Shown here piece after piece: positions 3,961 through 39,619 of a stretch of DNA of 64,000 nt (the stretch's first letter is position 1; every line of letters begins with the position of its first letter). The notes below the pieces were generated by a model, which searched no databases, was not told the origin of the DNA, and saw nothing but the letters and a program-made list of their open reading frames with translations. The DNA comes from Armatimonadota bacterium (GTDB lineage Bacteria > Armatimonadota > SYMT01). Position numbers and translations under genes: made by a program. The DNA is taken from positions 448,001 to 512,000 of the forward strand of contig JAWLHY010000001.1 in assembly GCA_041690135.1 (NCBI GenBank). The letters run 5' to 3'.

Positions 3961-4042
3961 GGTGTTCCACTCCGTAGCTGGAAATGTACCGCGCTCTTTC
4001 GAGAACGCGGGCCGCAGTGCGGCGCCCTACGCGAGGCCGGCG

Positions 4043-12279: not shown

Positions 12280-14883
12280 CTAACGGATGAGCTTTTTCTC
12301 CACTCCCCGAGGCGCATGCATCAGCCGCGCGGTGTCCCAGAGGATCACGTTGCCGTCCATCCCTCCGGATGCCAGCCTTCCGCTGCGAGAGTCCCAGGCG
12401 ATCGATAGCGCGCGCTTGGTGTTCTCTTCCCCCTCGAGGCGCTCCTCGCCGGTGGCCGCGTCTACCTGGTGGAACTTCCGGTCGCCGCCCATGTAAAGGA
12501 TCTGCGAGCCGTCCGCACTCCAGGCAAGAGAAAGTGCGAGATAGCGCGGGAGATGGATGGAGGCGCTCATTTCCCCACTCTCGGCATTCCAGAGGTGGAT
12601 GCCGTGGTTGGAAGCCGTAGCCAGCCGGTCGCCGCGCGGACTCCAGGCCAGGGAATGGAGTAAGTTCGGCGCTAGGGGTAGGGAATGCATCGGCTTAAGC
12701 GTCGCGGCATCCCACAGCGAGACCTCAGAGGCCGGAATTCCCAACGACACCGCCAGGCGCGTGCCATCGGGCCGGAGTGCCAGGGCGCGAACCTCCCCGG
12801 CGAGATTGGGTAGCACCCGCACCTGCTTTCCCGCACGGATGTCCCAGACCCGGAGCGTCCGATCTTCCCCGCCGGAGAGAAGTCGCTCCGATGACTGCCA
12901 GGCCAGGGCTAGCACCCGTCCCTGATGACCGCGCATCGTTTTAAGGAGAGCGGACGCCTCCACGTCCCACAGGCGAACGGTCCCATCCGAACCGCCACTC
13001 GCCAGCCGCGAACCGTCCGGACTCCAGGCCACCGTACGCACGTGGCGGTTATGGCCGGCCAGCATCCCCACCAATTCGCCCGATGCAGAGGCGATACTGA
13101 TGCGGCCGTCCCACCCGGCCGCCGCGAGACGGCTTCCGTCTGGGCTCCAGGTTACGGCCGATACGCCGCCGGCATGCCCGTGCACCACGCGTAACTGCGG
13201 CGCCGAGGGCACTTCCGCGGGCGGCAAGAGATCGTCGTACCGCTTCCTGGGGTTCTTAACGCGATAAGCATGCTGGTGGCCGTGAGACGCATGCTGCTGA
13301 ACACCCTTTATCCAGTTCGCGATTTGCTTCCGCTCTTCCGCGGTCCGGAGCACCCGCGGGTAGAGCATGCCGCGAGCATCCCGGCTTTTGAAATTGTAGA
13401 GCACCTCCGCCGCGGCGATGCGGTCGTAACTGTGTTCGAACTCCGTCCGAGCCGTGGTCTCGGCGATCTTCTGGAGCTTGGCCGCATCCCCAAACCACTT
13501 GTCCTGGTAGATTTCGAAACCCCAGAAGAGCGCGCTGGTGCCGGTGCTGCCCAGCTCGATTCCCTTCCAGAGAGCCTGGTCCGCTGTCCGGGCATCACTG
13601 TTGAAGGTCGCCGCGTATGCCAACTCTACCCAGAGATCACCCATGGTGGGATCGAGGGTCACCGCCTGCTGTGCCGCTTCCTGGCGGGCGGCGTAGAGCG
13701 GGCGGAGCAACTCCCATTCCTTTGCGGAAATCCGGTTCACCGTGCGTCCCCTCCGGATGGCCTGCGCCTGGTTGCCCAGGGCCTGCGAAAGGGGGTGCCA
13801 CGCAAGCGCGTTCCGGGTGGCACAGCGAATAGCTTCTTCCTCCAGGTAACGCGTCTGTACCCAGTTCTGCGACAGGGCGGTCAGGTTGGCATAAGCGGAA
13901 CGGATCTGGTAGTTGCCGGATTGCTTCTGAGCCAGTTGCTCAATCCGCTGCGACAGCTTGCCCGCGGTGGAGGAGCCGGAATTGTAGTGACACAGGCCGA
14001 TGGTGCCCCATGCCACGGGATGGTCCGGTACGAGCTGAAGCAGTACCTCGGAACGCCGGGTGATCTCCTCGCCCGACCCGGACGCGAGACCGTCGAATAC
14101 GTACAGCGTGCCCGCGAGAGGAGAAGTGGCCGCGAGACTCGCCAGGCGCGCGGTCTGTTGGGCACTCAGTATCGACCGCTGCGGGCGCGGCAGCCCGCCC
14201 AGCAACTGGAGATCCGCCGGGCTCTCGACCACCCGCTCGCTGACAGCCGGCCGGGGAATTCCAAGACCGGAGCAGAGCTGTCGGGCCATCTGGGGGAGTT
14301 GCGACGCCACCTTCGTCAGTGAGCCGGATACTTTGAGGGAGGGACCTACCGGCCGTTTCGCGGGTACCTCGTAAAGCTGATATTCCAGCGTGCAGCTTTG
14401 GACAGAACCGGAGATACGGCCCACGGCGGCGTGAGTGGCGCCCACCCGCGTGGAGAGGTGTGCCGCCTCTTCCGGCGTCATCCACCCCTTGCGCCGATCC
14501 AGGGCGATCATCACGTCGTTCAGGTTGTCCCATGTGGGCGTCTTCCCCAATTCGGGATGGCCCGCCACCTGGAAATGCAGCCAACGGGAGCAACCTGCCC
14601 CGAAGTCTCGCAGGGGCCGAGGCATCCCGGCGGCTACCGGCTCACACACCACCACCCCGGGGCCATTGTCGAGCTGGATCAGTTCGGAAATGGATCTCGG
14701 CCTGGGGTCGACCGGCGAGGCGCCCCTACCTCCCCCGTTACGCGCGGCCTGCTCGCGAGCATATCGTGGTGTGCCCGGCAGCGCCGGCCGGTCGAGAGGG
14801 TTGCGCAGTCCGGAGCAACCGGCGAGCAGGCCGGTGGCCACGACCGCGCCCAGTACTGCCTTCCAGCCTCGAAGGTTCCCCAT
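12280..14883 (-). CDS. Lipoprotein with TolB_N-like, TPR-like and C-terminal WD40 domains
   Basis: Lipobox LLAGC after hydrophobic leader; GAGGTG RBS; helical repeats; about 7 WD40 repeats (GH...WSPDGSRLASGGSDGTVRLWD). Confidence 0.88.
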   Translation of the reverse strand: MGNLRGWKAVLGAVVATGLLAGCSGLRNPLDRPALPGTPRYAREQAARNGGGRGASPVDPRPRSISELIQLDNGPGVVVCEPVAAGMPRPLRDFGAGCSRWLHFQVAGHPELGKTPTWDNLNDVMIALDRRKGWMTPEEAAHLSTRVGATHAAVGRISGSVQSCTLEYQLYEVPAKRPVGPSLKVSGSLTKVASQLPQMARQLCSGLGIPRPAVSERVVESPADLQLLGGLPRPQRSILSAQQTARLASLAATSPLAGTLYVFDGLASGSGEEITRRSEVLLQLVPDHPVAWGTIGLCHYNSGSSTAGKLSQRIEQLAQKQSGNYQIRSAYANLTALSQNWVQTRYLEEEAIRCATRNALAWHPLSQALGNQAQAIRRGRTVNRISAKEWELLRPLYAARQEAAQQAVTLDPTMGDLWVELAYAATFNSDARTADQALWKGIELGSTGTSALFWGFEIYQDKWFGDAAKLQKIAETTARTEFEHSYDRIAAAEVLYNFKSRDARGMLYPRVLRTAEERKQIANWIKGVQQHASHGHQHAYRVKNPRKRYDDLLPPAEVPSAPQLRVVHGHAGGVSAVTWSPDGSRLAAAGWDGRISIASASGELVGMLAGHNRHVRTVAWSPDGSRLASGGSDGTVRLWDVEASALLKTMRGHQGRVLALAWQSSERLLSGGEDRTLRVWDIRAGKQVRVLPNLAGEVRALALRPDGTRLAVSLGIPASEVSLWDAATLKPMHSLPLAPNLLHSLAWSPRGDRLATASNHGIHLWNAESGEMSASIHLPRYLALSLAWSADGSQILYMGGDRKFHQVDAATGEERLEGEENTKRALSIAWDSRSGRLASGGMDGNVILWDTARLMHAPRGVEKKLIR

Positions 14884-14987
14884 GCTCATCTCACCTCTCT
14901 CCTTTGCTCCGACCGCCTTCGTCCCCACATAGCGGTAAACTGGTTGCCCGTCGCCGCCTCTCCCAACCTGTCTCTACGCCGGCACGC

Positions 14988-16202
14988 TTAACGGCGCCAG
15001 AAGGCCCAAGCGGGACGGGTGTTGCTCTTAACCCGTGGATCCTCGGCGTACTTCCGTTCCCATTCCTTCCACGCCCCACCAGAGGCCGCCGCGCGTACCG
15101 CAGCCATGCAGCGGGCCGCAGCATCCACGGAGCCGTTCCCGGCGAGCGAGCCCGGAGTCGCCTTCGCCAGCAGCGCGTCCGCCAGTCTTCGCGGCTCGGC
15201 AGCGGATTTCAGTAGATCGATCACCACTTCGGGATCGCCGCCCAGAAAAGAACCGACCTGGTGCGGCGCTCGCTCCGCCAGGGCCGCCAACGCCAGGGGA
15301 GCTAGGGGAACTGCGCGCGGCGGGCTGACCCCGTCGTTTCCCGTCTCGCCGCAGATCGCCTGGCGGACCGCCTCGGCTTCCGCCACATTCCCGCTTTTCA
15401 ACGTGCGCGCCAGCCAGCGCACGTAGGCGCCAGCCGACGCCGTCGGCTCCGGCCTTACCGTAGCCGCCTCCAGATCGAAGGTGACGTAGGGGTTCCGCTG
15501 GCTTGGCCCCTCGCTTCCCGAGCGCACCGTGGCGATCCGGAACTGCTGGCGGTGGTGATCGCATGCCCGGTAAAAGTGGGTGGAGAAGGTCACTCCGAGC
15601 CGGTCCTGGGAGGGGAGCGCGAAGAGGAGCGCACCCAGTAACGCCCGGGACTCCGCTTCCGGACCGATCACCAGCCCCGGCTTTTCCGCCAAACCCAGTG
15701 CCGCTCCGACCCAGGCTTCCAGCCACTTCTCCGGAAGACGCTCGAATGCTTGGCTGGGGGCCGGCCGAGATACAGCGCCCAGCACCCTGGGCTCCAGGGC
15801 TCGGGGTGCCAGATCCAAAGACTCCATGGCGGGCCACTCTTGATCGAGAAGCGTAAACGGATCGGCGCCCAGGGCCAGGTACTGATCCTCCGGCAGGACC
15901 CAGTGGTACGCCAGGTAGTTCCCGCTGCGACCCGTGTGACTACTGCCCCAGTCGATGGTCTTACCCACGGCAACGGCGCCGGAAGGTAGGCGAAAGCAGC
16001 TCTCTTTCAAGGGCAGGTCGCCCTGCGCTCTTCGATCCGCGGTCACCTCGTAGTAGGCCGCCATGTCCTCCAGGCGACGCAAGTCGTCCGTGCCGACCAG
16101 GGCCTCGGAAACGGCCACCGTCTGGAACCCGGCGCCCTTCTGGGGAAAGTACCCTTTCTCCACATTTGAAGCCAGGTGCTGAAGTGCCTGCGCGGTAACC
16201 AT
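14988..16202 (-). CDS. GAP1-N2-like (GTPase-associated protein 1) protein
   Basis: GFQTVAVS..., GRSGNYLAYHWVL motif, VTFSTH; directly downstream of a TRAFAC GTPase. Confidence 0.72.
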   Translation of the reverse strand: MVTAQALQHLASNVEKGYFPQKGAGFQTVAVSEALVGTDDLRRLEDMAAYYEVTADRRAQGDLPLKESCFRLPSGAVAVGKTIDWGSSHTGRSGNYLAYHWVLPEDQYLALGADPFTLLDQEWPAMESLDLAPRALEPRVLGAVSRPAPSQAFERLPEKWLEAWVGAALGLAEKPGLVIGPEAESRALLGALLFALPSQDRLGVTFSTHFYRACDHHRQQFRIATVRSGSEGPSQRNPYVTFDLEAATVRPEPTASAGAYVRWLARTLKSGNVAEAEAVRQAICGETGNDGVSPPRAVPLAPLALAALAERAPHQVGSFLGGDPEVVIDLLKSAAEPRRLADALLAKATPGSLAGNGSVDAAARCMAAVRAAASGGAWKEWERKYAEDPRVKSNTRPAWAFWRR

Positions 16203-16205
16203 CGC

Positions 16206-17129
16206 TTACATCACCCCCGCGGAGCGGAAAATCCAGAAAAGCGGATCGCGCACCCGGAAGGGCGCCGGCTTGCGGGTGAGCCGCAGCTCCACATCCCGGG
16301 TACGGTCACCCCCACACGTACTGCACTGCTGCTGTACATCCATCTCCATGGCGCTGCAATGGGGGCAACGCCAGGAAGGCTGATGGCCAATGGAGGAGAG
16401 GGCGCAGAAACGCGTGTCGGCGGGAACACGATTGATGAAGCCGCGGCCGCCCTGGGCTCCGTCCAGCCACCAATCCCGAAGCATCCGCGAAAGCGTATCC
16501 ATTTCGCGGTGATACTCCGCGAGGCGTTCACCTCGCGGCGGGTCGTCCGGCCAGAGGTCGGCGATCATCTCCGCCCAATCGTTCTCGTGACGCAGTTCGT
16601 CCATCTTCGAAAGGACCACGATGAAGTTCTTCTTATCGCTTCCCGGAACCAGGCGAGAGATCTTGTCGCGGAGATCCGCAGCCTGCAGGGCACGGACGGT
16701 GAAGTCCGTACGGGTAGGATCAAAGAGGAAGAGAATGTCCGTAGCCGCCGGCAGGAAGGGCGCATTCTCCAACAGCCACTCTTCGTCCGACACCGCTTCA
16801 CCTGGAATGTCGTAGAACGTGATCTTCAGACTCTGGCGCTTTCCCTTCAGCGTTGGTATGCCGGTGAATTCCAGCACGGCGGGCTCCGGCGGCGTGCGCG
16901 GGCTGGACGGAGGCAGCGTCATCTTGCTCAGCGTGATTGCGTTTCCGAAGAACACCTCCGCGGCCTTCGGATTAGCGGCCCGTACCGCGTACGGGTGGCG
17001 ATCGTGCGCGAACGACTCCGAGAGCGCAAAGAAGCTGTCCCAGAACAACCCGGCCAAGAACACGGTTTTGCCGTGGTTCGGGTATCCAATGATTACGGCG
17101 GTCCTATCTTTTGGCTTCTGCCACCACAT
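16206..17129 (-). CDS. TRAFAC-clade GTPase (double-GTPase conflict-system type) with Zn-ribbon insert
   Basis: G1 GYPNHGKT, G2 PRT, G3 YDIPGE, G4 SKMD, G5 SSIG; CPHC...CSTC; start moved to ATG 17129. Confidence 0.85.
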   Translation of the reverse strand: MWWQKPKDRTAVIIGYPNHGKTVFLAGLFWDSFFALSESFAHDRHPYAVRAANPKAAEVFFGNAITLSKMTLPPSSPRTPPEPAVLEFTGIPTLKGKRQSLKITFYDIPGEAVSDEEWLLENAPFLPAATDILFLFDPTRTDFTVRALQAADLRDKISRLVPGSDKKNFIVVLSKMDELRHENDWAEMIADLWPDDPPRGERLAEYHREMDTLSRMLRDWWLDGAQGGRGFINRVPADTRFCALSSIGHQPSWRCPHCSAMEMDVQQQCSTCGGDRTRDVELRLTRKPAPFRVRDPLFWIFRSAGVM

Positions 17130-17166
17130 CCCGGAGCCGATCTCCCTGTCAAAGCCGCTTCCGGCT

Positions 17167-18699
17167 TCAATTCCGATCCTCGTAAACGGAATGCTGTATC
17201 GCTCCGTAGGCGCCCAGGCGGTAAAGCGATTGACACACGTCGCAACTGGGGTGGTCTGGCAACTGCTTTTCCAGTTGTTTGAGTACCGCAACCGCCCGTG
17301 CGTCCTCCGTGTGGCCTAACGCTTTAACCACCGAAGTCAAGACTTCCCTGTCGGAGATGGGGAGGGCCCCGATGAGCGCCGACGCCGACCGTCGACCCGC
17401 GCAATGTTCCAGGGCAAGTCCCGCTGCCCGCTGGAGATCCACACTGGGGTCCTTCAAAGCTGCCACCAGGGCGGGCACCACTTCGTCGGTGGGTGGAGCG
17501 AACAGTCCACTCTCCCGATCGGCGAGGTAGATCTCGTTGCCGTTCCAGTTGTGGCTCCGCCGAAATCCGGTGGAGAGCGCCTTGGCCGCCGCCAGCCGCA
17601 CTTCCAGCCGGACATCTCGGATGGCGCCAGCGAGGCCCCGGAGAACTTGCGTGAGGTCAGGAGGCCGCACGCGTTCATAGGAAGGTGGGGATACCTGCTC
17701 ACCGTAGCGGATCGCCTGAACCAGCCGCATCTGCTCGTCGCTGGCGGATTTCGCAATCTCGCCCAGGGATTCTGCCGCGGCAACCCGCACCCTAAGCTCC
17801 CGGTCGCGCAGCGCCGCCACTACCGGCTGTACGGCCGACGCGTCGGCAGACATTCCCAGGGCCACGACCGCGGCCTCCCGGATACTTGCCTCCTCACTCT
17901 TCAGGTGCCGCACCAGCACCGGAAGGACCTGCGGAACCACGTTCCGAATGAACGTGCTGACGGAAGTAAGATCTTGACGGTCCTGCGTCGCGGCCATGGC
18001 CAGCAACAATGGAGTGACGGCCCGTTCATCGAAGTGGTCCTGAAAGTAGTAGCGAGCCGCCGAACGCACGGAACTATCCGAGTCCCGCATCGCCGTCAGC
18101 AACATCGGCACACTGGAGGGATCCGGGTGCGCCCGGAGCGCGTAGACCGCCCTGGCCCGCACGCTGGCGTTCGGGTCGGTAACCGCGGCTTGAATGGGCG
18201 CCAACGGCACCGGCCTGCAGTCCTTGATGATAGCGAGTGCGGCCGCCTTGACTTCCGGGTCCGTATCGCGAGCTGACGCGGCGAGTGCGTAGCCTGCCCG
18301 ATGTCCGCCTATCTGGAAGAGTAATTGAGGAAAGCGCGCCGGGAGCAGTCCCAGCGCGGCCGTGGCCAGGAGAAGCTCGCAGGCGATGATTCCCGCTGCG
18401 AAAAGTCCGGCGACCGAGTGGAGCACCTGCATCCAGTTCCGGCTCTTCTCGCGCAGCACCAGCAGCGCAAGGATGACGGCGGCAGCTAGGGGCAGCCCAA
18501 CCAGAATGTCGCCCACCAGGGCGGGATAACTCCGCTTGACCACCCAGTAGCCCACCCCGCCAAGCAAGGCCGCGCCCGCCAGTCCCAACCGCTGAACGAG
18601 CCGGGCGGCTTGGGGAGCTTCCAGTCGCACTCCCCAACGGAACAGGGGAATGGCGAGAATGCCTCCGGCAAGCGTACCCACGATCAAAGCCAGCGTCAT
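17167..18699 (-). CDS. Multi-TM HEAT-repeat protein
   Basis: About four N-terminal hydrophobic helices; repeated D.D..VR..A..AL motifs; terminal CDVC. Confidence 0.88.
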   Translation of the reverse strand: MTLALIVGTLAGGILAIPLFRWGVRLEAPQAARLVQRLGLAGAALLGGVGYWVVKRSYPALVGDILVGLPLAAAVILALLVLREKSRNWMQVLHSVAGLFAAGIIACELLLATAALGLLPARFPQLLFQIGGHRAGYALAASARDTDPEVKAAALAIIKDCRPVPLAPIQAAVTDPNASVRARAVYALRAHPDPSSVPMLLTAMRDSDSSVRSAARYYFQDHFDERAVTPLLLAMAATQDRQDLTSVSTFIRNVVPQVLPVLVRHLKSEEASIREAAVVALGMSADASAVQPVVAALRDRELRVRVAAAESLGEIAKSASDEQMRLVQAIRYGEQVSPPSYERVRPPDLTQVLRGLAGAIRDVRLEVRLAAAKALSTGFRRSHNWNGNEIYLADRESGLFAPPTDEVVPALVAALKDPSVDLQRAAGLALEHCAGRRSASALIGALPISDREVLTSVVKALGHTEDARAVAVLKQLEKQLPDHPSCDVCQSLYRLGAYGAIQHSVYEDRN

Positions 18700-19652
18700 A
18701 CCGCACCTCCCTGCCCAACTCTTGGAGCCTCCGCCGCGGCAACCTCCACCGTTCCCGGATCTTCACTGCCTCGTGACCGCCGAGGATCCGCGATCGAGTC
18801 CGGACCCAGGAACGCTTCCGCAGGGACCCGGTACTCCACCTCACCGAACCGAGACGATAGTAGGCGCTGTGCGGCGGGATCGAGCTCCGCGGCTGCAACG
18901 CGAACCCGGATAGCGGCGAGACGGTCCTCCGAAAGCTCAGCTCGGCTTACCAGGTGATCGATAATCTGCCCCAACCGGAGGGGATCACCCTCGGAGATCC
19001 ACACGGAAGTCAAACCATGTACGGCGTGGCTCCGGGGGAGCACATCCTGCTCCCGTGTCAGGTCTTCCAGGCAGAGGTTCCACTCCACTAGGCCCTCACG
19101 CTCCCGCGCAAAGCACCGCACGCCCGCAACCGTCCTGGTTTCGGCCTCGCCTCGCGCAGCTAACTCGAGAAAGTCGTGCGCCGTCACCGCTCCGTGGACC
19201 ACCACTTTGCGCTCGTGGAGCTGCCCGGCGTCGCCAGTAGCCCGGCACTGTCCGCAGTAAGCGTGCAGGCGATCGGCGCCGGACTCCGACCACTTGGCGC
19301 CGCAGTGCGGGCAACGACAGCCTAACAGTTCGCCCCCCAGGGCCGCGCGCGGATCGACTTCCTGCCCGCAGGAGTTGCATGCATAGCGAAACTCATCGCG
19401 GTGTAGGCAAGCGGGGCAGAGAAAAGCGTGCTCCGACCGCCGGTGTCGCGCCCGCTCGCGAGCCACGGACCGGTTCACCAGGGCCCATCCGCTCCCCATC
19501 AATCCCAGCAGCAGCCCCAGGTAACCGGCAATCCCTATCCAGCCCAGGGAGGGGCTCTCCCGCTGCAGACCCACCAGGAGCGCAATCAGGACCGGAAGCC
19601 ACCAGAGTTGCGTCAGGATGCGTAGCGCCGGGTTTCGCAACAGTAACTGCAT
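18696..19652 (-). CDS. 2-TM, multi-Zn-ribbon protein; possible degenerate GTPase partner
   Basis: Two TM helices; CPAC, CNSC, CPHC, CGQC; 4-bp overlap with HEAT gene. Confidence 0.78.
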   Translation of the reverse strand: MQLLLRNPALRILTQLWWLPVLIALLVGLQRESPSLGWIGIAGYLGLLLGLMGSGWALVNRSVARERARHRRSEHAFLCPACLHRDEFRYACNSCGQEVDPRAALGGELLGCRCPHCGAKWSESGADRLHAYCGQCRATGDAGQLHERKVVVHGAVTAHDFLELAARGEAETRTVAGVRCFAREREGLVEWNLCLEDLTREQDVLPRSHAVHGLTSVWISEGDPLRLGQIIDHLVSRAELSEDRLAAIRVRVAAAELDPAAQRLLSSRFGEVEYRVPAEAFLGPDSIADPRRSRGSEDPGTVEVAAAEAPRVGQGGAV

Positions 19653-19661
19653 GTTCTGCCT

Positions 19662-21203
19662 CTAATGTCTATGCGGTCGCGCTAGCTCGCGCGCAAGCTG
19701 GAGAATTTGCCCCGCTTCCTTTTGCACGTCTTCCAGGCGTCGCGCTTGCTCGGAGCTCAATTCTTCCGCACCGTGTTTTCCTCGCGACAGCATCAACCGC
19801 GCGGAGCTCTGTGCCAGCTTCGCGTAGCGGACCGCCTCCTCGCCATTCCGGTACTCCAGTAAAGTACGAGCGAGAAGCGCCAGCCACTCCGGTTGCTCGA
19901 CGGGAGGGGCATGGCGCAAGGCAGCCAGCGCATATCGCTCTGCCTCGCTCAGGTTCAGGTCTTGGCGGTGGTAATCGAACAGGTAGCGGGCTGCCGCCGG
20001 GGCTAAGGGACTGTCGGGGTATTCGGTCAACAGGCTGACCGCCACGCCTGAACGGAGTTGATCATCGATCTGGGTGGTGGCAGGATCGAGTAAAGAAGCC
20101 AGAAACTCCGCGGAGATCCCGTACTTGAGGGCGCTGATTTGCGGAGATGAATAGTTGCCGCTCGCTTGGGAGAACCAGAGGCGGAGCTCCGCATTGAGCT
20201 CCCGGGTCAGTGCCGGAGCCCACACGCTGTGGGGCCACCTGTCAACGGCGTACCGCAGTTGTTCGAGACGCCGCGCGGCGACATCCGCCGCCTTCTCACG
20301 CCGGCCCTCACCGACATAGGCCGCGTATGCCGGCCCGAACAGACGAGCTGCGGGGAGGGGGCGGAAGTGCTCCAGATGCTGCCCCAATTGTACCGGGGTA
20401 ACTCCCAGATCCCAGCCGGCGATGATGGTGCCAAGCGTAAGCGCGGTCACCAGCCCGCTCACCCGTTCCACGGCCAGAATGCCGGCCGTCAGCACCAGTA
20501 GGTGAGCCGGCGTGGCAGCGAGGCGAGGACGGATGGAAGCGGGGATCAGCCGCAGGTGGATGGCCCACAAGACAGCACACGCCCCGGACAGCACCATCTT
20601 GTTCAGGGGCCATAGCTGGTGGAAAATATCACGATCGGCCACAGCCCGGTAACTCCAGAGCGAGAAGAGCGGGTTCTCCGCGAAGCTCCAGAGCGCCGAA
20701 CTGAGCCAGAGGACGAGTGCCAGAACCATTCCGGCCGCGGCGCTCCGGAAATAGGAGGCGGTGAGACTGGCCAGAAGAGCAAGGAACGTGGCGCCCGGAA
20801 GCGCTCCCAACAACGGCGTAACTACATCGGAGCCGGCCCCGAGAAAGCTCACGGCCACCACTCCGCACAGACCCACCACCAGGCCGAAGCCCAGGCTGGT
20901 CAGGATCCGGAGAGCCAGAGCCCGGCCGCGACCACTTCCTTTTCCGCAGAGGAGGGCATCCAACCCCGAACGCTCGGAGTCGGCCGCCAACCGTCCCGCA
21001 CACAAGGCGGCAACGAGCGACGGAAAACCCTCCGCCACCCAAACTGGGGCATCGGCATCCTTTGAGAGCAGGGCCACGAGCGCGGGCGCACCCAGAATTG
21101 CGATGGCTGCGCCCGCCCATAACGAAGGCCGCCAGAGGGAAGCCAGGCTGATCCACCAGTACTTCCAAACAGAGGGATCCGAACGCGTCTGGGTCGCTGT
21201 CAT
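19662..21203 (-). CDS. ABC-2-type permease-like membrane protein with C-terminal TPR domain
   Basis: About seven TM helices; RWPHSVWA and EYPDSPLA TPR-like caps. Confidence 0.75.
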   Translation of the reverse strand: MTATQTRSDPSVWKYWWISLASLWRPSLWAGAAIAILGAPALVALLSKDADAPVWVAEGFPSLVAALCAGRLAADSERSGLDALLCGKGSGRGRALALRILTSLGFGLVVGLCGVVAVSFLGAGSDVVTPLLGALPGATFLALLASLTASYFRSAAAGMVLALVLWLSSALWSFAENPLFSLWSYRAVADRDIFHQLWPLNKMVLSGACAVLWAIHLRLIPASIRPRLAATPAHLLVLTAGILAVERVSGLVTALTLGTIIAGWDLGVTPVQLGQHLEHFRPLPAARLFGPAYAAYVGEGRREKAADVAARRLEQLRYAVDRWPHSVWAPALTRELNAELRLWFSQASGNYSSPQISALKYGISAEFLASLLDPATTQIDDQLRSGVAVSLLTEYPDSPLAPAAARYLFDYHRQDLNLSEAERYALAALRHAPPVEQPEWLALLARTLLEYRNGEEAVRYAKLAQSSARLMLSRGKHGAEELSSEQARRLEDVQKEAGQILQLARELARPHRH

Positions 21204-21206
21204 GCC

Positions 21207-22499
21207 TTACTCCCTCGTTTGCGCCACCAGGGCCGCTACCTGGTTCCGGAGTATCCCGGCCTCCAACCTGCCCTCGTGCCGGATCTGCCGTACGATGCGT
21301 TGCCGGTCCGTCACCACCAGCAGCGGCAACTCCGCGGCTTGATAGGCCCGCATCACCGCAGAGGCCGGAGCCCGATCGGAGGCGGTGGCGCTGGTGTCCA
21401 GTCCAATGGGGAAACGGTACTCGCCAACGCGCGCGATGGCCCACCGGTCCGCGACATTGGGGCTGATGCAAACCCCCAACGGCTGCACTCCTTCGGTTCC
21501 GAATTCGCGCTGAACGCTTTGCAGTGCTTCCAGCGAGGCGACCGCTTCCGGGTCGCTGGCGGAGAACAAGAGAACCAGCAGGATCTTTCCGGGGTAGTCG
21601 GCGGTGCGAAGAATGCCGCCCCGACCGTCTGGCAGACTCAGTCCCGGTATCCGGTCACCCACTCGCAGTTCCTGGGCCTCCATCCGGCGCCACCATGTAG
21701 CCGTGACTTCGGTGTGCGTGGGACGGCCGCGATAGGCCAGGGCGGCACTCCCGAATACCGACATCGCCAGCGCACCCAGAACCGCCGCGGTCGTCCAATG
21801 CCGGTACGGTTCGCCCCGCCTACTGCGCTCCAGAATGAGAGCGACTCCGACCACACCCAGGACCACCAGCAGCAGCCAGGCACCACTGTTCTGGGCGTAG
21901 GCCGCCGAGATTCCCCACCGGCGGAACGCCGGATCGAGAACGAACCAGCCGATAGTGGCGAGGATTCCCGCGGGCGGCCACCGTAACGCTCGGGTGGCCG
22001 TGAACGCCAGGGTGACCAGAATGATCACCTGAGTTGCGGCCCGGCCCATGGCAGCGAGCGGGCTAAGCAGACCGGTAGCGCCGCTCGCTGCGAAAATGGC
22101 CACCGGCATCAGGAAGCCCCCTGCAAGCAGCACCAGCCAGAGCCCAATTCCACAGACCCAGTCCACCAGCAGGCGCTGTGCCCCGTCTCCCGGTTTTGCG
22201 CGAAACAGAGCACCCTGGTCCTTTCCTCCGTGCAGATCAGTAGCCGCGCGAGTGGTGACCCAGACCCCACCCGCCAATCCGTAAAGACTGCCGAGCCAAT
22301 CCCCCAGCGCAATAGAGGCATAGGCAGGACTGTTCCGGAGAAGGACGGCCGCCAGGCCGGTCAGGATCGCCGCAGCCAGTGCCGGACGGCGCAGTGAGGA
22401 ATTCCGCAACTCATGGACCAATCCCAACCGGAGCAACTGCAGCAGGCGCTGCATCCGGTGAATCGGAAAGCCGCGAGTCTCTTGCCAGAATCCAGACAT
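21207..22499 (-). CDS. ABC permease-like membrane protein fused to Cys-less TlpA/redoxin domain
   Basis: About seven TM helices, then LRVGDRIPGLSLPDGRGG...YPGKILLVLLFSASDPEA...ELPLLVVTD; GGAGG before ATG 22499 (alternative ATG 22454). Confidence 0.78.
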   Translation of the reverse strand: MSGFWQETRGFPIHRMQRLLQLLRLGLVHELRNSSLRRPALAAAILTGLAAVLLRNSPAYASIALGDWLGSLYGLAGGVWVTTRAATDLHGGKDQGALFRAKPGDGAQRLLVDWVCGIGLWLVLLAGGFLMPVAIFAASGATGLLSPLAAMGRAATQVIILVTLAFTATRALRWPPAGILATIGWFVLDPAFRRWGISAAYAQNSGAWLLLVVLGVVGVALILERSRRGEPYRHWTTAAVLGALAMSVFGSAALAYRGRPTHTEVTATWWRRMEAQELRVGDRIPGLSLPDGRGGILRTADYPGKILLVLLFSASDPEAVASLEALQSVQREFGTEGVQPLGVCISPNVADRWAIARVGEYRFPIGLDTSATASDRAPASAVMRAYQAAELPLLVVTDRQRIVRQIRHEGRLEAGILRNQVAALVAQTRE

Positions 22500-23340
22500 A
22501 GGCGTCCTCCAGGGTGGGGGGAACGGGTTGCGCTTCGGGTACGGGCGAGGCCGGGGCGACACCGCGGAGTGTGAGCTTGCCGTCCACTCGCGTCAGCCCG
22601 GTCCTGAGGAATGAGGGCGGCAAAGGCGGCATTCTTCCGTCGAACTCCAGGCGCCACACCTGGCCACGCACCAACTCCAGCAGGTCCGCGTGAGCGGCGT
22701 AGGCCAGCACGCGTCCTTCGTGCAAAATCAGAACCCGCTCCGCCAGCGCCTCGGCCTCGGCTGGGGACGAGGTTCCTACCAGCACCAGGTATTCCTGGCC
22801 AAGGGCGGCAATTACGGAGCGGACTTCCCAGGCGTCGGTCTCGGGAAGGTTTCGTGTCGGCTCATCCAGCAACAGGGTGGAGATCTGTCCTAAGCAGGCC
22901 TGCGCCAGAGCCACACGCCGGTGGACCCCCGGTGGCAAGGCGCGGATCCTCTGATCGCGGTGTAGTGTGAGGTTGAACCGCTCCATCACCCGGCTGATCC
23001 GGAGTTGCCGCGCTGCCGGGAGGTCCAGGTTGCAGAGGAGTGCGAGGTAATCCAGCATCTCGTACACCGTGAGATCGGGAAGCAAACCGGCTTCTTCTGG
23101 AACAAAGCCGATCCGGCGGCGGACCTGCGTGGCCTGTTTTCGCGTGTCGCAACCGTCCACCCGGATGGACCCTCCCGATGGCTGGTCGAGAGCGGCTATC
23201 AGGGAGAGAAGGGAGGTCTTACCGGCTCCCGCCGGACCCAATACGGCTAAAACGCCAGTCTCGACCTCGAAGCTCACCCCCCGCAAGCCATGCCCGGCAC
23301 CCCGCTGCTTTTTGCTGACCTGAATGAACTGGATTCCCAT
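22411..23340 (-). CDS. ABC transporter ATP-binding protein with degenerate motifs
   Basis: GPAGAGKT, LLLDEPT, PTLEDAY; signature reads LPPGV and the switch His is absent. Confidence 0.9.
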   Translation of the reverse strand: MGIQFIQVSKKQRGAGHGLRGVSFEVETGVLAVLGPAGAGKTSLLSLIAALDQPSGGSIRVDGCDTRKQATQVRRRIGFVPEEAGLLPDLTVYEMLDYLALLCNLDLPAARQLRISRVMERFNLTLHRDQRIRALPPGVHRRVALAQACLGQISTLLLDEPTRNLPETDAWEVRSVIAALGQEYLVLVGTSSPAEAEALAERVLILHEGRVLAYAAHADLLELVRGQVWRLEFDGRMPPLPPSFLRTGLTRVDGKLTLRGVAPASPVPEAQPVPPTLEDAYVWILARDSRLSDSPDAAPAAVAPVGIGP

Positions 23341-23343
23341 GGA

Positions 23344-24492
23344 TCAGAAGCCCTGATACTGCTGTGCCTGTTCAGCGGCGATTTGAAGGAGAAGCGCGGG
23401 AGGGATCCGTAGGCGACGGATTCGGTTCCCCTCATACTCCGCCACGTAGGTCGTCCCATCCTCATCCACAATCAACGCACACGGCGCTGTGAGGCGAGCA
23501 ACGTCCCCGTTTCCATCCACGGATGCGGGAGAGTTAGCCCGCCCCATGGGAGTACCACCCGCCAGGAGCACCTGTGAGCCTTCCCCTCGATCCAGAAGTA
23601 TCAGGTGGTTCTCCGGATCGGGGTACACCTGCGGCAGGCCGGCCGTCGCCAGTACGGACCCACCCAGGCGGGAGTTGTCGGCAAATGCTCTCCCCGCGGT
23701 GAGAAAACGCGTCCGTACCATGGTCGTGGCCGACCAGTAGGCGTCGATTCGATCCGGCACATGGTTGCCCTGGTAATCACCCAGGATGCTGCGGACGGTC
23801 TTGGGAGGCTGCGTTGGGGTCGTCACGTTGCCGGCTGCATCTACCCTCCGCACACAGCGGTTGCCGACATCCGCTACCCACAAGGCCCCATCCGGCCCCC
23901 AGGTCAGCGCGGAAGGGGAGCGGAAACGGGCGGCTGAACCTTTGCCTTCCGCCTTTCCGGCCTTTGAGCCGGCCAGGGTGCTCACCACGCCGTTCTGGAT
24001 GCGACAGATGCGATGGTTGCCCGTGTCTGCCAGATAGATGACGCCGGACGGAGACACGGCTACGCCCGTAGGATAGCGAAAGCGGGCGCTGTCCACGGGA
24101 CCATCGCTTTTGCCGCCGGGACCGCCAGGTTCTCCTCCACCCGCCAGCGTGGACACCTCACCTTCCCGGCTGATGCGGCGAAGGCGATGATTGCGACTGT
24201 CGCAGACCAGAATGCTGTGGTCCGGTCCGAACGCCAGGCCCGTGGGCCCGCAGAATCGGGCCTTCCAGCGCGGGCCGTCCGCGAATCCCGGCTCCGCTCC
24301 GGTGAGCGTTTCAACGCGAATGTGTTCGTATCCCCGCGCTTGCTCTCGGGGAGTGAGGGTGCTGGTGGTTCCGTAGGTGGAGTTGCTCCGCTGCGCCACC
24401 TGCGAACTGGGCCAGTAGAGGTACACGGCGATGCCGGTCAGCCCCGCAAGTATGGCGGCGGCGGTCCCGGGATTGATTCGGTTACCGAACAT
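23344..24492 (-). CDS. Membrane-anchored NHL-repeat beta-propeller protein
   Basis: N-terminal TM; ARF..PTG.A...DTGNHRI repeats. Confidence 0.9.
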   Translation of the reverse strand: MFGNRINPGTAAAILAGLTGIAVYLYWPSSQVAQRSNSTYGTTSTLTPREQARGYEHIRVETLTGAEPGFADGPRWKARFCGPTGLAFGPDHSILVCDSRNHRLRRISREGEVSTLAGGGEPGGPGGKSDGPVDSARFRYPTGVAVSPSGVIYLADTGNHRICRIQNGVVSTLAGSKAGKAEGKGSAARFRSPSALTWGPDGALWVADVGNRCVRRVDAAGNVTTPTQPPKTVRSILGDYQGNHVPDRIDAYWSATTMVRTRFLTAGRAFADNSRLGGSVLATAGLPQVYPDPENHLILLDRGEGSQVLLAGGTPMGRANSPASVDGNGDVARLTAPCALIVDEDGTTYVAEYEGNRIRRLRIPPALLLQIAAEQAQQYQGF

Positions 24493-25519
24493 ACCCTTCG
24501 TCCTCCACCTGAACCGCCACCGGTGTGGTGCCGCCCACCTGAAACAGTTGGTCCTGGTCGGCTACCACGCGCCCTGAGAGTGAACCGGGGAGTCGTTCGG
24601 CGGGCGCACGCCCGCGAAGCGCATACCAGCCGTCGGAAGCGAACCGGACCCCTTGAGGCGTCCCCAGGAGGACCCCGTTTTCCGGCAACCAATCACCGAC
24701 CAGGACAACGTTCCCAGCGCTTCCGAGGGTCCGGACGCAGCGCATCCCGGTGGCGGGGCTGGCTTCATCGGAGGGTGCGGTCCAGAAGAGCGTGCCCTCG
24801 TACAAAACCGCGGACTGTGAACCGCTCTCGACGGCCACGCGCTCCGCCTTTCCGTCGGCCAGCGCGATCCGGAGGAACTCCGTGCTGGCAGGCCTCCGGA
24901 CGCGGCAGAAAAGATAGTCCTCAGTCACTCCCAGCAGATCCTGGGCGGGAAGTTCGGTACCGGAAGGCCCACCTCCCGGCCACTCTGCCAGCGTGCGGAC
25001 CGCGCCGCTCCCATCACGCATCCGTAGGATCGCGGTCCAGCCTTCCGTGGGAATATAGCGGAAGGCCGCCGCTCGAGGAGCCCGGTTCTCCAGCCAGTAC
25101 AAACGGCCGTTGTCCGCGAAGAGTCCCGAGGGTTGTGCAAGGCCAGACACCACCTTTTCGGGCGTCACATCGCGGCCCGGGCGCAGCCGACAGAGGTGAC
25201 CCTGGTCCCGCTGCTGCTGCGTCAGCCAGAGTGCTTGGCCATCCCAGGCCAGAGCGCTCCAGCCGGATCCGGTAGCCAAAGATACCGGCGCACGCCCTGG
25301 CCCACCTTCAAAGAGGGTCTCTTGTCCCCCGGAGGCGTGAGTCCAGAACCACCGATCACCCCCCGAAGCGAAAAGGACGATCCCGTCGCGGAAGGGCCCT
25401 CCTACGAGTGACAGCGCGGGGTTACGGTCAGGCTGCGCGGCTACCAGGCTCGCGGTTGCGACACACACGAGTACTGCCGCCGTAAACCGGATGCGACGGA
25501 TCGATGCGTAGGTGTCCAT
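24482..25519 (-). CDS. Secreted beta-propeller-like hypothetical protein
   Basis: Signal peptide; LAWDGQALW, ADNGRLYW, LYEGTLFW blade-like motifs; overlaps NHL gene start. Confidence 0.72.
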   Translation of the reverse strand: MDTYASIRRIRFTAAVLVCVATASLVAAQPDRNPALSLVGGPFRDGIVLFASGGDRWFWTHASGGQETLFEGGPGRAPVSLATGSGWSALAWDGQALWLTQQQRDQGHLCRLRPGRDVTPEKVVSGLAQPSGLFADNGRLYWLENRAPRAAAFRYIPTEGWTAILRMRDGSGAVRTLAEWPGGGPSGTELPAQDLLGVTEDYLFCRVRRPASTEFLRIALADGKAERVAVESGSQSAVLYEGTLFWTAPSDEASPATGMRCVRTLGSAGNVVLVGDWLPENGVLLGTPQGVRFASDGWYALRGRAPAERLPGSLSGRVVADQDQLFQVGGTTPVAVQVEDEGYVR

Positions 25520-25712: not shown

Positions 25713-28598
25713 TTAACCCAGGCGCAGGTTGCGCAGCAAACGACCCTGCCGGAGATCCACCACCAGGAGACGTCCCCGGTCATCGGTGACGGTGAGAGTC
25801 TCTTCCTGGAAACGGCAGGCGATACTCCCGGCGCCCTCCAGGAGGATCTTCGCGCACAAGCTCCGTCGCCCCTGGTCGAACAGGAACAGCTCACAGGCTT
25901 CCGGGGTGCGAATCCCGGCCACCACCCATTCCTCGGAGGCTATCGGGGAGAGGCGCATCGCGTCGTTTGGAACGGACGCGAAGAGCCACTCCCGATCGGC
26001 GATGGCTACCGATCCCGCACTGTAAGGGGTCACCGCCTGGGCTGACCCTTCCGTGTTGCCGGGCGGGGGCAGGCCTGCCAGCCGGCCTTGCGGAGTGATG
26101 GAGCGCCACGGTGCCGAGCTCCAGCTTTCCCGCACGGGGCCGCGCTGGCGCAGCACGAGTTGGGGAAGCTGGTAGGTCCACCGCTCCCAGCTCTCGGTGG
26201 GAGGGATGGGGTTTCCCCAACTGTCCCGGTCCTCGTAGGCGTGGATCAGCAGGGAGCAGTGACCGGCATTCCGCGCGAGGGCGATGATCCGGCCCGGCAC
26301 TTCCTTCGTCCGCCAGAGGGCGGCGAACCGGGGCGCCGTGGCATCAATAGCGAGAAACCCTTCTTTCCCAGCCGCGAACCAGAGGGAGCCGTCGTAGTCG
26401 GACGCCCAGGCGTCCAGGCGCGCTTCGCACCAGCTTTCCGCGCGACGCGAAAGCAGGTCCAGCCGGGCGATGCGGTAGATGTCCCCGCGCCGGGCAAGAG
26501 CCAGGGCGCGGTCGCCGCGGTCCGAAACCACCAGGTGGTGAGCCGGCTGGTCGAAGTGAGCGACGGTGCGGCCGTCCCGCGTGAGCAGGCGGACCCCCGC
26601 CTCGCCCAGGGCTGCCAGGCACCGACCGCCGGGCAGGTAAGCCGCGTCCATAACCGGCAGCGCGCCCACGTCGGCGGCGGAGAACGCGAACTCCAGCGGG
26701 GTGGTGCGCAGGTGCAACTCCGACCGCTTCTCCGGCGGAAGCGGCGGCAGATCGGTGCGCAGGGCGCTGTCGCCGGCATACTGGATCAACTGGCGGAAGT
26801 CGGCGCCGGGAAGACGCTCGAGACCTGCTCCCGCATCACGGACCAACGCACGGACGGTGGCGCGCGCGAGGGTGGCGCTCGCGGGGGTCCGCTCCGTCTT
26901 CCGGAGGGCATCCGCGAAAGCCATGCGTTCCGGTCCGGACTCGGCGTCCTCCCGCGCCAGAAGCTCGAGGGCCCGGGTGCGGACTTCTCCCCAGGTTTCC
27001 GGCAACAGGGCCAGCTTGCGGGGCAGCATGCGGGCCGCCGGCACTCCGCCCAGCGCGAGTACGCGCTCGATCCACTCCTGAACGAGCGGGCGACCTTCCT
27101 CGATCGGCCAGGCGGCCTCGACCGCCCCGGCATAATCTCCCGCGGATGCCAGGGCATCCGCCCAGAGGAGGCGGGTATAACGGGCCAGTTGCGGATCGGT
27201 CTGTTCCAGGCGCGTCACCGCGTCCGCGAAGGCGCCGGTTCGGCGGGCGATCCGGACGGCCCTATCCCGATCACCCGCGAGGAGCCAGAGCCGGATGATC
27301 AGCCCCGGCGGCAGTTCCCTTGCTTCCGCGATCTCGGCGGCGAGTTGGAAGCGCCCGTGTCGTTCCAGGAAGGCAGCCGCCTCCGCGTAGGCCTGGAGTA
27401 GTTCTACAAGAACGAAGGCGGCCTCGTCGATGCGGCCCTCTGCGGCCAGGCGCTCGTGGGCACGACGGTAGATGCTCTCCAGGTCCTGGAAGAGACCGCC
27501 TCCCATGCCGATCGCGGATCTCACCGGTGCGCCGAACGGCTGGATCGTCAGGTCCGCCCGTGGAGCGAGGAAGCCGAGGGATGGCGGCAGGAACTCGGTG
27601 CCGGGAAGGCTCCCCAGCGGAATGGCATGGCGCAGCGCCTCGGTGAGGTCGCCCCGCTCAAACATGTCGAGCATGCGCGCCACGTACTCCGCCTGTCGCC
27701 GGCCTACCAGTCCGGACAGCCGGAAGTTGATCAACATCCGCGCGGCCGCCCGGCGCGCCACGCGAGAGAGACGGTCCAGTAGCGGAAGCTCCCAATCCGG
27801 TGGGATCACTCCGGGAGAAGATGGCGCTCGCCCCGCGCCATGGACCGGGAGACCGCCTGCCGGACCCTTCCCGGCGGCGCCACTGCTGGAAAGAAGGCCG
27901 CCCAGTTCCCGGAACAACCCTCGGAAGGCACTCCCCAGGGCCGTCGCCGCCCGCGCCATGCGGGGATCGACCTCGAAGCCCTGGTCGCGGTCAGGGGTGC
28001 GGCTCGTGGGCCGTTCCCGTGCCTTCTGCAACAGGAACAGGAGATCGCGTAACTCGGGAGAGGCGGGGGGAACCCCCTCCATTCGGGAGCGGGCCTCGAA
28101 GGGAGCCTCTTCGATCAGCACTTCGGCCGGTGGGGGCGGGGTCCCGAGCGAACGGGGTTCCACGTACTGGAATTCCGCCACCTCCAGCCATTTCGACAAC
28201 CACTCGGAGACATCAACTTCCGAGGCTGCGGAGAGGGCCTCGGTGAAGATCTCCCCCTTCCGGGCATACACCACCGCATCCGGGTTAGGAGAAAGGATAG
28301 CCCATTCCTGGGGAGCGAGGGGAAGCGAGCTCAGTATAAAGCCTGTTTCCGCGCCAGCCCGGCCGGTACCGAGACGAACCAGGGGGAGGCCGGGCGCAGT
28401 TGCGCAATCGACCCGAACCGAGGTCGGCAGGCGCAGGAGCCAACCGCCGCCGCAGCGATGCACCCGGGAGCCCGAAACCCACGCCTGTAGCACCCGCCGG
28501 CGGACTTCGGCTTCTCCCACGAGATCCGGGAAGAAGAGGAACCCGGAAGCTTCCACGGATCCCCGGTGCACCAGTTCTCGCGGTCGCAGCGGGTTCAT
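25713..28598 (-). CDS. bpX6-domain / helical repeat / beta-propeller protein of MoxR-vWA ternary system
   Basis: Start moved to MNPLRPRELVHRGSVEASGFLF (4-bp overlap with upstream gene); APGLPL, FERGDLTEALRHAIPLG, GRIDEAAFVLVELL. Confidence 0.82.
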   Translation of the reverse strand: MNPLRPRELVHRGSVEASGFLFFPDLVGEAEVRRRVLQAWVSGSRVHRCGGGWLLRLPTSVRVDCATAPGLPLVRLGTGRAGAETGFILSSLPLAPQEWAILSPNPDAVVYARKGEIFTEALSAASEVDVSEWLSKWLEVAEFQYVEPRSLGTPPPPAEVLIEEAPFEARSRMEGVPPASPELRDLLFLLQKARERPTSRTPDRDQGFEVDPRMARAATALGSAFRGLFRELGGLLSSSGAAGKGPAGGLPVHGAGRAPSSPGVIPPDWELPLLDRLSRVARRAAARMLINFRLSGLVGRRQAEYVARMLDMFERGDLTEALRHAIPLGSLPGTEFLPPSLGFLAPRADLTIQPFGAPVRSAIGMGGGLFQDLESIYRRAHERLAAEGRIDEAAFVLVELLQAYAEAAAFLERHGRFQLAAEIAEARELPPGLIIRLWLLAGDRDRAVRIARRTGAFADAVTRLEQTDPQLARYTRLLWADALASAGDYAGAVEAAWPIEEGRPLVQEWIERVLALGGVPAARMLPRKLALLPETWGEVRTRALELLAREDAESGPERMAFADALRKTERTPASATLARATVRALVRDAGAGLERLPGADFRQLIQYAGDSALRTDLPPLPPEKRSELHLRTTPLEFAFSAADVGALPVMDAAYLPGGRCLAALGEAGVRLLTRDGRTVAHFDQPAHHLVVSDRGDRALALARRGDIYRIARLDLLSRRAESWCEARLDAWASDYDGSLWFAAGKEGFLAIDATAPRFAALWRTKEVPGRIIALARNAGHCSLLIHAYEDRDSWGNPIPPTESWERWTYQLPQLVLRQRGPVRESWSSAPWRSITPQGRLAGLPPPGNTEGSAQAVTPYSAGSVAIADREWLFASVPNDAMRLSPIASEEWVVAGIRTPEACELFLFDQGRRSLCAKILLEGAGSIACRFQEETLTVTDDRGRLLVVDLRQGRLLRNLRLG

Positions 28599-31322: not shown

Positions 31323-31337
31323 ATCTGTTCGCACCTC

Positions 31338-35331: not shown

Positions 35332-35333
35332 TA

Positions 35334-36866: not shown

Positions 36867-36877
36867 GGATGTAGTGA

Positions 36878-39386: not shown

Positions 39387-39619
39387 CTGCGTTTCCCTTC
39401 GGATGGCCCGGAACGGCAAGCGGAACAGCGGAAGCAAGTGTCGCGCTTCCTGGAGATTACGGTCGCACCCCTATCATTCCCGGCTGCCGTATCGCGGGTT
39501 GGTGGGATAGTCGTTCTTAGTTCGAATGTTCCCGCAGCGCCGCGCTTTTTCCTTGTCTCCCGACAGATCGGCACAGGATTGGGACAGATTGGGAAGGATT
39601 CGAGTGGTGACGTTTGTGG

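Follow-up and report, generated by a model that had tools for sequence, protein, structure and literature searches.

A divergent ABC-like cassette joined to a membrane-anchored GAP1-N2 GTPase core in a soil Armatimonadota bacterium

Introduction

The closest described relatives of the gene cluster treated here are the GAP1-N2 systems, which in the main text of Kaur et al. (2020; PMC7159879) consist of a DO-GTPase gene followed by a GAP1 gene, zinc ribbons, transmembrane (TM) segments, a protein of FNIII repeats, and variable themes (tubulin, HSP70/GrpE, kinase/PP2C, SLATT, FGS, and GYF; the FGS theme is mentioned for planctomycetes). As described there, the DO-GTPase is a TRAFAC GTPase with a Glu in Walker B and is encoded directly upstream of GAP1; the GTPase carries two N-terminal zinc ribbons, a second GTPase has TM helices, GAP1 proteins combine GAP1-N2, GAP1-M, and GAP1-C domains, and TM pore effectors may be fused to GAP1. 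The cluster, g1 to g10, lies in a stretch of 64,000 nucleotides (the window; positions 448,001 to 512,000 of contig JAWLHY010000001.1, assembly GCA_041690135.1) on contig C1 of a soil Armatimonadota bacterium (genome code G000; 9.1 Mb, 25 contigs), and positions are those of the window unless another contig or locus is named. A model reading of the window from its letters (the sequence-only reading) had proposed nine of these genes as a single new system, in which an ATP-binding cassette (ABC)-like scaffold gates a GTPase switch.

Compared with the GAP1-N2 systems of that main text, the cluster has in common a DO-GTPase (g8) encoded directly before a GAP1 protein (g9, with GAP1-N2 and GAP1-M), zinc ribbons and TM segments on its components, and a place near the membrane in a genome rich in systems of the MoxR-vWA type. 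Unlike in those systems, the two zinc ribbons of the window are on a separate TM protein (g6) with a predicted GTPase-like fold devoid of a P-loop, a TM-HEAT protein (g7) is a constant partner, and an ABC-like cassette (g1 to g5) and a WD40 lipoprotein (g10) are attached. No FNIII family was found in the 13 open reading frames (ORFs) scanned (12280-32489), and the ten genes gave no match to any theme or effector of the described kinds (tubulin, HSP70/GrpE, kinase/PP2C, SLATT, FGS, GYF); nor did family scans of the ten genes return an enzymatic effector, as the sequence-only reading had also noted. A kinase/FHA/vWA group is present 17 kb away, beyond a MoxR system.

The claim that coupling of such a GTPase to an ABC complex had no prior description agrees with the sources compared: ABC as a whole word does not occur in the main text of PMC7159879, the neighbourhood tables of which (Figure 1-source data 1), outside this comparison, could list such contexts, and in the literature on GAP1-N2 and DO-GTPase no other description was found, one 2026 preprint mentioning the clade in passing. 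A check for known defence systems in PADLOC-DB 2.0, suggested by the same reading, gave no specific match; all matches were generic (ABC to mad3/mad8, HEAT and WD40 to a repeat model), with none for g1, g2, g4-g6, g8, and g9, GAP1 models being possibly absent from that library. We would class the cluster among the GAP1-N2 GTPase-centric systems, as a lineage-specific variant and not as a categorically new system.

NosDFY and GldAFG are examples of ABC-2 exporters with periplasmic partners. The window cassette resembles exporters of the DrrA-GldA type in that its nearest models are DrrA and GldA and that one ATPase gene is accompanied by multi-TM partners and periplasmic accessory proteins; it differs from them in scoring far under the equivalog cut-offs, in having no match to an ABC-2 membrane Pfam family, and in its degenerate catalytic motifs. 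A further likeness to ABC-2 exporters is seen in a canonical copy of the cassette elsewhere in the same genome (contig C20), which is followed by a NosD-like beta-helix protein. A further close relative is a five-gene cassette widespread in Armatimonadota, with a motif-intact ABC in the canonical copies examined and a predicted thioredoxin-like ectodomain devoid of cysteines. The window copy has the same five genes in the same order; it differs in evolving 2-10x faster, in the loss of ATPase motifs, and in being joined to a GTPase module.

Results

Composition of the cluster

Judged from family content and gene order, the cluster is a composite of a paralogous ABC cassette (g1 to g5), a four-gene membrane-anchored GAP1-N2 core (g6 to g9), and a WD40 lipoprotein (g10). 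The nine ORFs of the sequence-only reading, g1 to g9, were recovered on the minus strand at 14988-25519, overlapping or spaced by a few bases, and its domain calls for all nine were borne out by family scans, hydropathy, and AlphaFold2 (AF2) models; a tenth gene on the same strand, g10, extends the cluster beyond g9 (Table 1). Adjoining genes overlap by 11 nt (g1/g2) and 4 nt (g6/g7) or are separated by 3 nt (g2/g3, g4/g5, g8/g9) and 9 nt (g5/g6). Terminator-like sites were absent from every gene junction (four in total; 9.2 expected from shuffles). We infer that the ten-gene block is one operon under selection.

The same junction in a second genus

An orthologous GTPase module was detected in a single further genome, G002, from another genus of the same family. 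On its 6-kb contig L045 are the genes of an ABC ATPase with ~39% identity to g3, an 801-residue multi-TM protein (a fused permease), a TM-zinc-ribbon protein, a TM-HEAT protein, and the start of a GTPase, the first ~120 residues of which are 76% identical to g8; the permease and zinc-ribbon genes are 9 nt apart in the window and 10 nt apart in L045. Residues 387-799 of the 801-residue protein align with residues 129-506 of g5 (24% identity, E 6e-7), and the protein has no significant match to g4 or to its redoxin domain. The end of L045 and the start of L038-L015 overlap by 97 nt (99% identity) inside the GTPase gene; L038/L015 contain the rest of the GTPase (64%), a GAP1 protein (about 40-41% to g9), and a 995-residue WD40 protein (31% to g10), after which an unrelated 263-residue ORF and an aldo-keto reductase gene stand where the window has a helicase gene.

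At the other side, L045 begins with 141 nt that recur, at 100% identity, at the end of contig C15 of G002, an overlap of assembly-graph size that points to a link between the two contigs. C15 carries SDR and aminotransferase genes pointing away, where the window has a bpX6/MoxR system, and no propeller or NHL gene is present on it. With this upstream link, the conserved block of G002 would run from the ABC gene to the WD40 gene, with flanks that differ from those of the window on both sides. L045 ends in 136 nt that repeat the first 136 nt of L038 exactly but in inverted orientation, which looks like a fold-back assembly artefact; the inverted stretch garbles the reading frame at both contig ends.

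Degeneration of the ATPase and divergence of the cassette

In alignment, g3 keeps Walker A (GPAGAGKT) and Walker B (LLLDEP), including the catalytic Glu, and lacks the Q-loop Gln, the LSGGQ-type signature, and the H-loop His; L045 shares these losses, the H-loop His having become Ser. The three canonical copies aligned (G000-C20, G002, and G001) are all intact (Table 2). Such a protein is predicted to be a nucleotide-binding-competent, hydrolysis-dead ATPase, from which the residues for hydrolysis and for the canonical ATP-sandwich dimer have been lost.

Table 2 ATPase motifs in canonical cassette copies, in g3 of the window, and in the ABC ATPase of L045
Motif	Canonical	Window (g3)	L045
Walker A, Walker B	present	kept	kept
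Q-loop	YLPQD (YLPQDVG)	FVPEE (FVPEEAG)	YVPAG
Signature	LSGGMRQRV	LPPGVHRRV	LPLGTQRQV
After Walker B	EPTAGLDPEE	TDAW	TEAW
H-loop	LSTHI	VGTSS	VTTAS

The two degenerate ATPases (g3 and L045) form one bipartition with support 99/97, on branches of 1.28 (g3) and 3.3 versus 0.1-0.2 for canonical copies; in leave-one-out trees, each of them alone attaches in or next to the copies of family f1, the family of the host. Between G000 and G002, the canonical ABCs share 78.3% identity and the GTPase-linked pair about 38-39% (38.2% pairwise). Three further high-scoring ABC places were read in the five other f1 genomes and all are motif-intact. The remaining cassette proteins tested have the same placement and rate: g2 is within the f1 clade (Shimodaira-Hasegawa-like approximate likelihood ratio test support, SH-aLRT, 100) on a branch of 1.19 versus 0.5-0.94; g4 is in the f1 clade (support 100) on a branch of 1.52 versus 0.27-0.76; g5 has a branch of 3.3 versus 0.5-0.6, and g5 and the L045 permease are both in the f1 clade on branches 5-6x longer. 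On these trees and identities, the window cassette is a fast-evolving paralogue and not the canonical copy. Another paralogous pair, the third and more distant, consists of an ABC ATPase (33%) and a permease-redoxin-like protein (26-28%), without propeller genes, and is present at G000:C1:1236199-1238308 (L097) and on G006:C344 (L096).

Each module without the other

The phylum was searched over 401 genomes. GAP1-N2 was found in 16 of them and the permease-redoxin protein in 146; its membrane and redoxin parts were both covered at ~45 places in at least 40 genomes among the matches listed, including all six other genomes of the family. GAP1-N2 and permease-redoxin are both present in G000, G002, G006, and G017 only, and on different contigs outside G000. 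At the 16 other cassette loci, a second permease (g5-like) is next in 14, the contigs ending there in the other two, and a g1-like match is present in 12; the flanks are variable and of housekeeping type (creatininase, GidA, BrkB, amidohydrolase, PPIase, TldD/PmbA). No cassette match was found at six GAP1 loci.

Both modules also occur singly in the host genome. Contig C20 (L011 7416-15342, minus strand) carries the canonical propeller, NHL, ABC, permease-redoxin, and permease-TPR genes in the same order without a GTPase, at 34-44% identity to the window genes (27% for the last gene), followed by the gene of a 578-residue NosD-like beta-helix protein. Contig C2 (L012 7740-11761, minus strand) carries a second GAP1-N2 module of a 633-residue zinc-ribbon protein, a GTPase (46%; DO-GTPase2 30.7 bits), and a GAP1 protein (37%; 76.6 bits), without an ABC gene and without a separate HEAT gene, flanked by a thymidine kinase gene and a PMT_2-like gene. 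A scan of GTDB species genomes with the GTPase alignment gave 54 loci, none with a match to g1, g2, g4, or g5. At L033, L036, L041, and L044 (Armatimonadota and Acidobacteriota), the zinc-ribbon, HEAT, GTPase, and GAP1 genes form a self-contained unit with housekeeping or opposite-strand flanks.

Both halves of the cluster are thus conserved independently and stand alone in relatives, and the proposal of a unitary nine-gene system does not hold in that form. Separate occurrence of the two blocks, which the sequence-only reading had named as evidence against itself, does not settle the matter: the window cassette is a diverged paralogue, the only detected orthologue of which, in G002, is again joined to an orthologous GTPase module.

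A general association of ABC genes with DO-GTPases was considered and rejected, an ABC match lying near 5 of the 54 loci only; three of these loci (L084, L069, and L079) were annotated for the comparison, and the match at L084 belongs to a CcmA/CcmB cytochrome c maturation system. The other two, from Anaerolineae, have ABC genes on the strand of the GTPase: L069 (895-10343, plus strand) encodes GTPase, GAP1, an ABC-F-like protein, an ABC ATPase, and a PD40 propeller; L079 (9800-17238, plus strand) encodes GTPase, GAP1, a LysM protein, an ABC ATPase, and a MacB-type permease. The ABC families of both differ from that of g3. At L018 (5604-11767, plus strand), a more distant Armatimonadota GAP1-N2 locus in G017, three genes lie between GTPase and GAP1, encoding a 345-residue ORF, an FGE-sulfatase-like (FGS-type) protein, and a HEAT protein.

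Proteins of the ABC-like cassette

The g1 to g5 ORFs are full length and stop-free and align with the canonical cassette copies end to end. g1 has no Pfam match; its residues 9-30 are hydrophobic and signal-like (hydropathy), its AF2 model (predicted local distance difference test, pLDDT, 79.5) is an all-beta propeller whose Foldseek matches are solved propeller domains, and it is 34% identical to the g1-like gene product of the canonical copy on C20. The nearest NCBIfam models of g3 are DrrA (137.7 bits; equivalog cut-off 312) and GldA (129.6 bits; equivalog cut-off 403), both far under cut-off. In g4, several TM segments (hydropathy) are followed by a match to AhpC-TSA (33.3 bits, residues 301-426). 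The cysteine-free thioredoxin singled out by the sequence-only reading is present in g4, though it is not distinctive, the CxxC position being devoid of cysteine in 7/7 aligned redoxin copies, a trait of all cassette copies aligned. g5 is without a Pfam match and has several TM segments (hydropathy) and a helical C-terminal part; its nearest Atlas cluster (score 0.96) contains Armatimonadota proteins with TPR_14 on 36%. Neither g4 nor g5 matches an ABC-2 membrane Pfam family.

Proteins of the GTPase core and the lipoprotein

g6 has two TM helices (hydropathy) and a weak match to a zinc ribbon family; its Cys pairs (C79/C82, C92/C95, C114/C117, and C133/C136) are invariant in 7/7 sequences. The AF2 model (pLDDT 75) contains a C-terminal alpha/beta domain with a P-loop position from which GK[ST] is missing. 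Structural matches of residues ~147-295 are mostly G-domains of small GTPases (Z 6.2-7.5; ~30 of the 50 listed rows are GTPases), and at these Z values the GTPase-like fold of g6 is a lead and not proof; no signal was obtained when the g6 and GTPase family alignments were compared with hhalign. If the modelled fold is real, the published "double GTPase" would correspond in this cluster to one active and one inactive partner. An Atlas cluster look-up with g6 was discarded, the best score (0.77) being too low to use.

TM segments of g7 are predicted at residues 1-24, 57-85, and 89-123 (hydropathy). A HEAT gene is located upstream of the GTPase within the module at L033, L036, L041, L044, L045, and L098, and between GTPase and GAP1 at L018.

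The sequence-only assignment of g8 and g9 to a TRAFAC GTPase and a GAP1-N2 protein was right. g8 scores 26.6 bits with DO-GTPase2 (PF19993), just below the cut-off of 27, and its homologues pass that cut-off with 30.7, 33.2, and 27.8 bits, those at 30.7 and 33.2 being 46-51% identical; the HGKT, D..GE Walker B, and K.D motifs are invariant in 5/5 sequences. A ~22-residue CxxC...CxxC insert near the C-terminus of g8 is found in the window copy only, and in none of the four aligned homologues. g9 exceeds the cut-offs of PF20013 (GAP1-N2) and PF20014 (GAP1-M), both 24 bits (Table 1), and its GAP1-N2 domain was also recovered by a whole-genome family search; its last 170 residues have no Pfam family at E <=1, the C-terminal part being conserved in nine homologues with W378, W381, and W399 invariant.

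g10 has an LLAGC lipobox near its N-terminus, and no WD40 gene was seen after GAP1 in the annotated stand-alone GTPase modules. A metagenome scan with g8 returned one 2.7-kb contig with a HEAT gene followed by a GTPase gene (70% identity), which ends short of the upstream region.

Neighbouring genes

Directly upstream of g1 is a ternary system of the MoxR-vWA-beta-propeller type (Table 1). Two of its ORFs, one of 706 residues without a family and one with a bpX6 domain, overlap by ~650 nt as called; the start of the bpX6 protein is probably near 28590. Co-directional TPR, vWA, Ser/Thr kinase, and FHA genes next to the MoxR system may be a further signalling or conflict module. The gene downstream of g10 encodes a DinG-like helicase, and at the start of the window a protein of more than 1320 residues (AAA_35 NTPase/WD40), leaving the window, adjoins a 622-residue STAND-like protein (BTAD and AAA_35).

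Table 1 Genes of the cluster and neighbouring features of the window; bits are scores with the family named
Feature	Position	Strand	Description
g1	24482-25519	-	secreted beta-propeller, first cassette gene; signal-like N-terminus, AF2 fold
g2	23344-24492	-	NHL-repeat propeller; NHL 83.8 bits, TEN_NHL 64.8 bits
g3	22411-23340	-	ABC nucleotide-binding protein, degenerate motifs (pseudo nucleotide-binding domain, pseudo-NBD); ABC_tran 89.4 bits
g4	21207-22562 (likely start 22454)	-	multi-TM permease with C-terminal thioredoxin-like domain without CxxC cysteines
g5	19662-21203	-	multi-TM permease with helical (TPR-like) C-terminal domain
g6	18696-19652	-	two TM helices, two zinc ribbons, C-terminal GTPase-like fold without P-loop (predicted pseudo-GTPase)
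g7	17167-18699	-	N-terminal TM helices and HEAT repeats; HEAT_2 98.1 bits
g8	16206-17291 (likely start 17129)	-	DO-GTPase type 2
g9	14988-16202	-	GAP1; GAP1-N2 53.7 bits, GAP1-M 30 bits
g10	12280-14928	-	lipoprotein, helical N-terminal part and WD40 propeller; WD40 156.7 bits
MoxR-vWA-beta-propeller-type system	25713-32489	-	ternary system
bpMoxR	31338-32489		283.5 bits
706-residue ORF	28595-30715		no family
bpX6-domain protein	25713-29240		
TPR, vWA, Ser/Thr kinase, FHA genes	33322-39437	-	co-directional
AAA_35 NTPase/WD40 and BTAD/AAA_35 proteins	1-5911	-	first protein leaves the window

Discussion

The ABC cassette and the GTPase switch probably work together, as far as can be told from sequence. 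We see about an even chance that the cluster is a lineage-specific GAP1-N2 variant which captured an ABC-like TM module, functionally coupled to it and with the ABC-like part as transducer. Coupling is favoured because the same junction, in the same gene order, is present in a second genus with the flanks changed on both sides; because the permease/zinc-ribbon junction is tight in both genomes; because both linked ATPases have the same derived motif losses and form one well-supported bipartition (99/97); because the linked cassette is accelerated (38.2% versus 78.3% ABC identity, with long branches for g2, g4, and g5) and no degenerate copy was found among the further ABCs read in five f1 genomes; and because both additions, the ABC-like module and the WD40 lipoprotein, are exposed to the envelope. 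The core alone reaches the periplasm only via short TM segments. Gating of a GTPase switch by an ABC-like scaffold, as put forward by the sequence-only reading, is a live proposal that rests on two related genomes.

Several observations weigh against coupling. The two genomes are related and represent a single evolutionary origin, and the adjacency may be inherited. The order NHL, ABC, permease-redoxin is kept in 16/16 other cassette loci, none with a match to g6-g9; of 11 further sites that have a close GTPase and 3.4 kb or more of sequence upstream, 10 are without a cassette gene; and a g3-like ABC gene within 10 kb of the GTPase, seen in 5 of the 54 GTPase loci, is about what the ABC-gene density of G000 would give. 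The neighbourhood analysis proposed by the sequence-only reading had a divided outcome, the ABC-GTPase junction recurring in G002 and all 16 cassette loci and the stand-alone GTPase cores being unlinked. G002 has lost the redoxin domain and apparently both propeller genes, so that this half of the block is still changing and may be in decay. A role in "conflict" has itself only been predicted for GAP1-N2 systems, from comparative genomics, in the main text of PMC7159879.

These observations are also accommodated if a subfunctionalised duplicate of the cassette and a self-sufficient GAP1-N2 module are independent neighbours, arranged head to tail and co-transcribed, with the adjacency in G002 inherited and not selected. 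This account is a serious possibility, though with less than an even chance: each module is found alone in many genomes between variable housekeeping flanks, the host itself carries both kinds apart, a canonical cassette on C20 and a zinc-ribbon/GTPase/GAP1 module on C2, and the two linked cases have one origin; yet the conserved block stops exactly at the ABC gene and at the WD40 gene with both flanks differing, the junction is at most 10 nt in both genomes, and a predicted hydrolysis-dead ATPase is kept as an intact ORF down to 38% identity only beside the GTPase module. A further alternative is a decaying duplicate, in which a redundant cassette would be turning into pseudogenes and the loss of motifs would reflect relaxed constraint. 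The long branches of all cassette proteins tested, the lost catalytic motifs, and the loss of further parts in G002 would fit, but five full-length ORFs free of stops that align end to end with canonical copies, Walker A and B kept in both degenerate copies, and specific derived residues common to two genera make decay very improbable.

Coupling could also run in the reverse direction, with GTPase and GAP1 as sensor and timer and the ABC-like permeases and dead ATPase as an output channel replacing pore effectors of the SLATT type. Conservation of TM domains and pseudo-NBD in G002, where the ectodomain genes are dispensable, would suit such a channel, as would the lack of any other encoded effector and the TM pore effectors fused to GAP1 in the main text of PMC7159879. 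A pore-forming channel is putative only, however; the stand-alone four-gene modules are also without an effector, so one may not be required, and the WD40 lipoprotein would be left without a role. We consider this direction improbable.

The favoured reading, a captured ABC-like module acting as transducer, can be drawn out as follows. In the common ancestor of the two genera, the GTPase core would have gained its envelope-facing parts by capture of the ABC-like module and the WD40 lipoprotein. A ligand from the envelope or from an invader would be bound by the propellers in the periplasm together with the lipoprotein and the ectodomains, and the permease pair would relay the change across the membrane to a non-hydrolysing ABC subunit. 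The GTP cycle of the DO-GTPase/pseudo-GTPase pair would be altered in turn, with TM-HEAT as scaffold and GAP1 for timing. The output would probably be assembly or gating of the membrane complex itself, because no enzyme is encoded. In its fullest form, the proposal is that an ABC-2 cassette has turned into a TM signal transducer, made up of a pseudo-enzyme ATPase, a pseudo-GTPase/GTPase couple, GAP1, and a periplasmic sensing arm; taken as a whole, this is tentative and on balance doubtful. The sensing arm would then be composed of propellers, thioredoxin-like domain, TPR-like domain, and WD40 lipoprotein and would serve a cytoplasmic GAP1-N2 "conflict" core; among the nucleoside triphosphate (NTP)-dependent conflict systems, no ABC-derived receptor module would have been reported before it.

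Two by-products of the analysis may be useful more widely: the five-gene ABC cassette, widespread in Armatimonadota and so far uncharacterised, and a compact four-gene core (TM-zinc-ribbon pseudo-GTPase, as predicted, HEAT, DO-GTPase, and GAP1) that stands alone in two phyla. GAP1/DO-GTPase systems are known from comparative genomics only. The usual FNIII "sensor" is missing in the present cluster, and an ABC-like module with a predicted hydrolysis-dead ATPase and a periplasmic WD40 lipoprotein are found in its place. If the coupling is true, it would provide a concrete route from the periplasm to the GTPase, with an ABC transporter recycled as a signalling scaffold.

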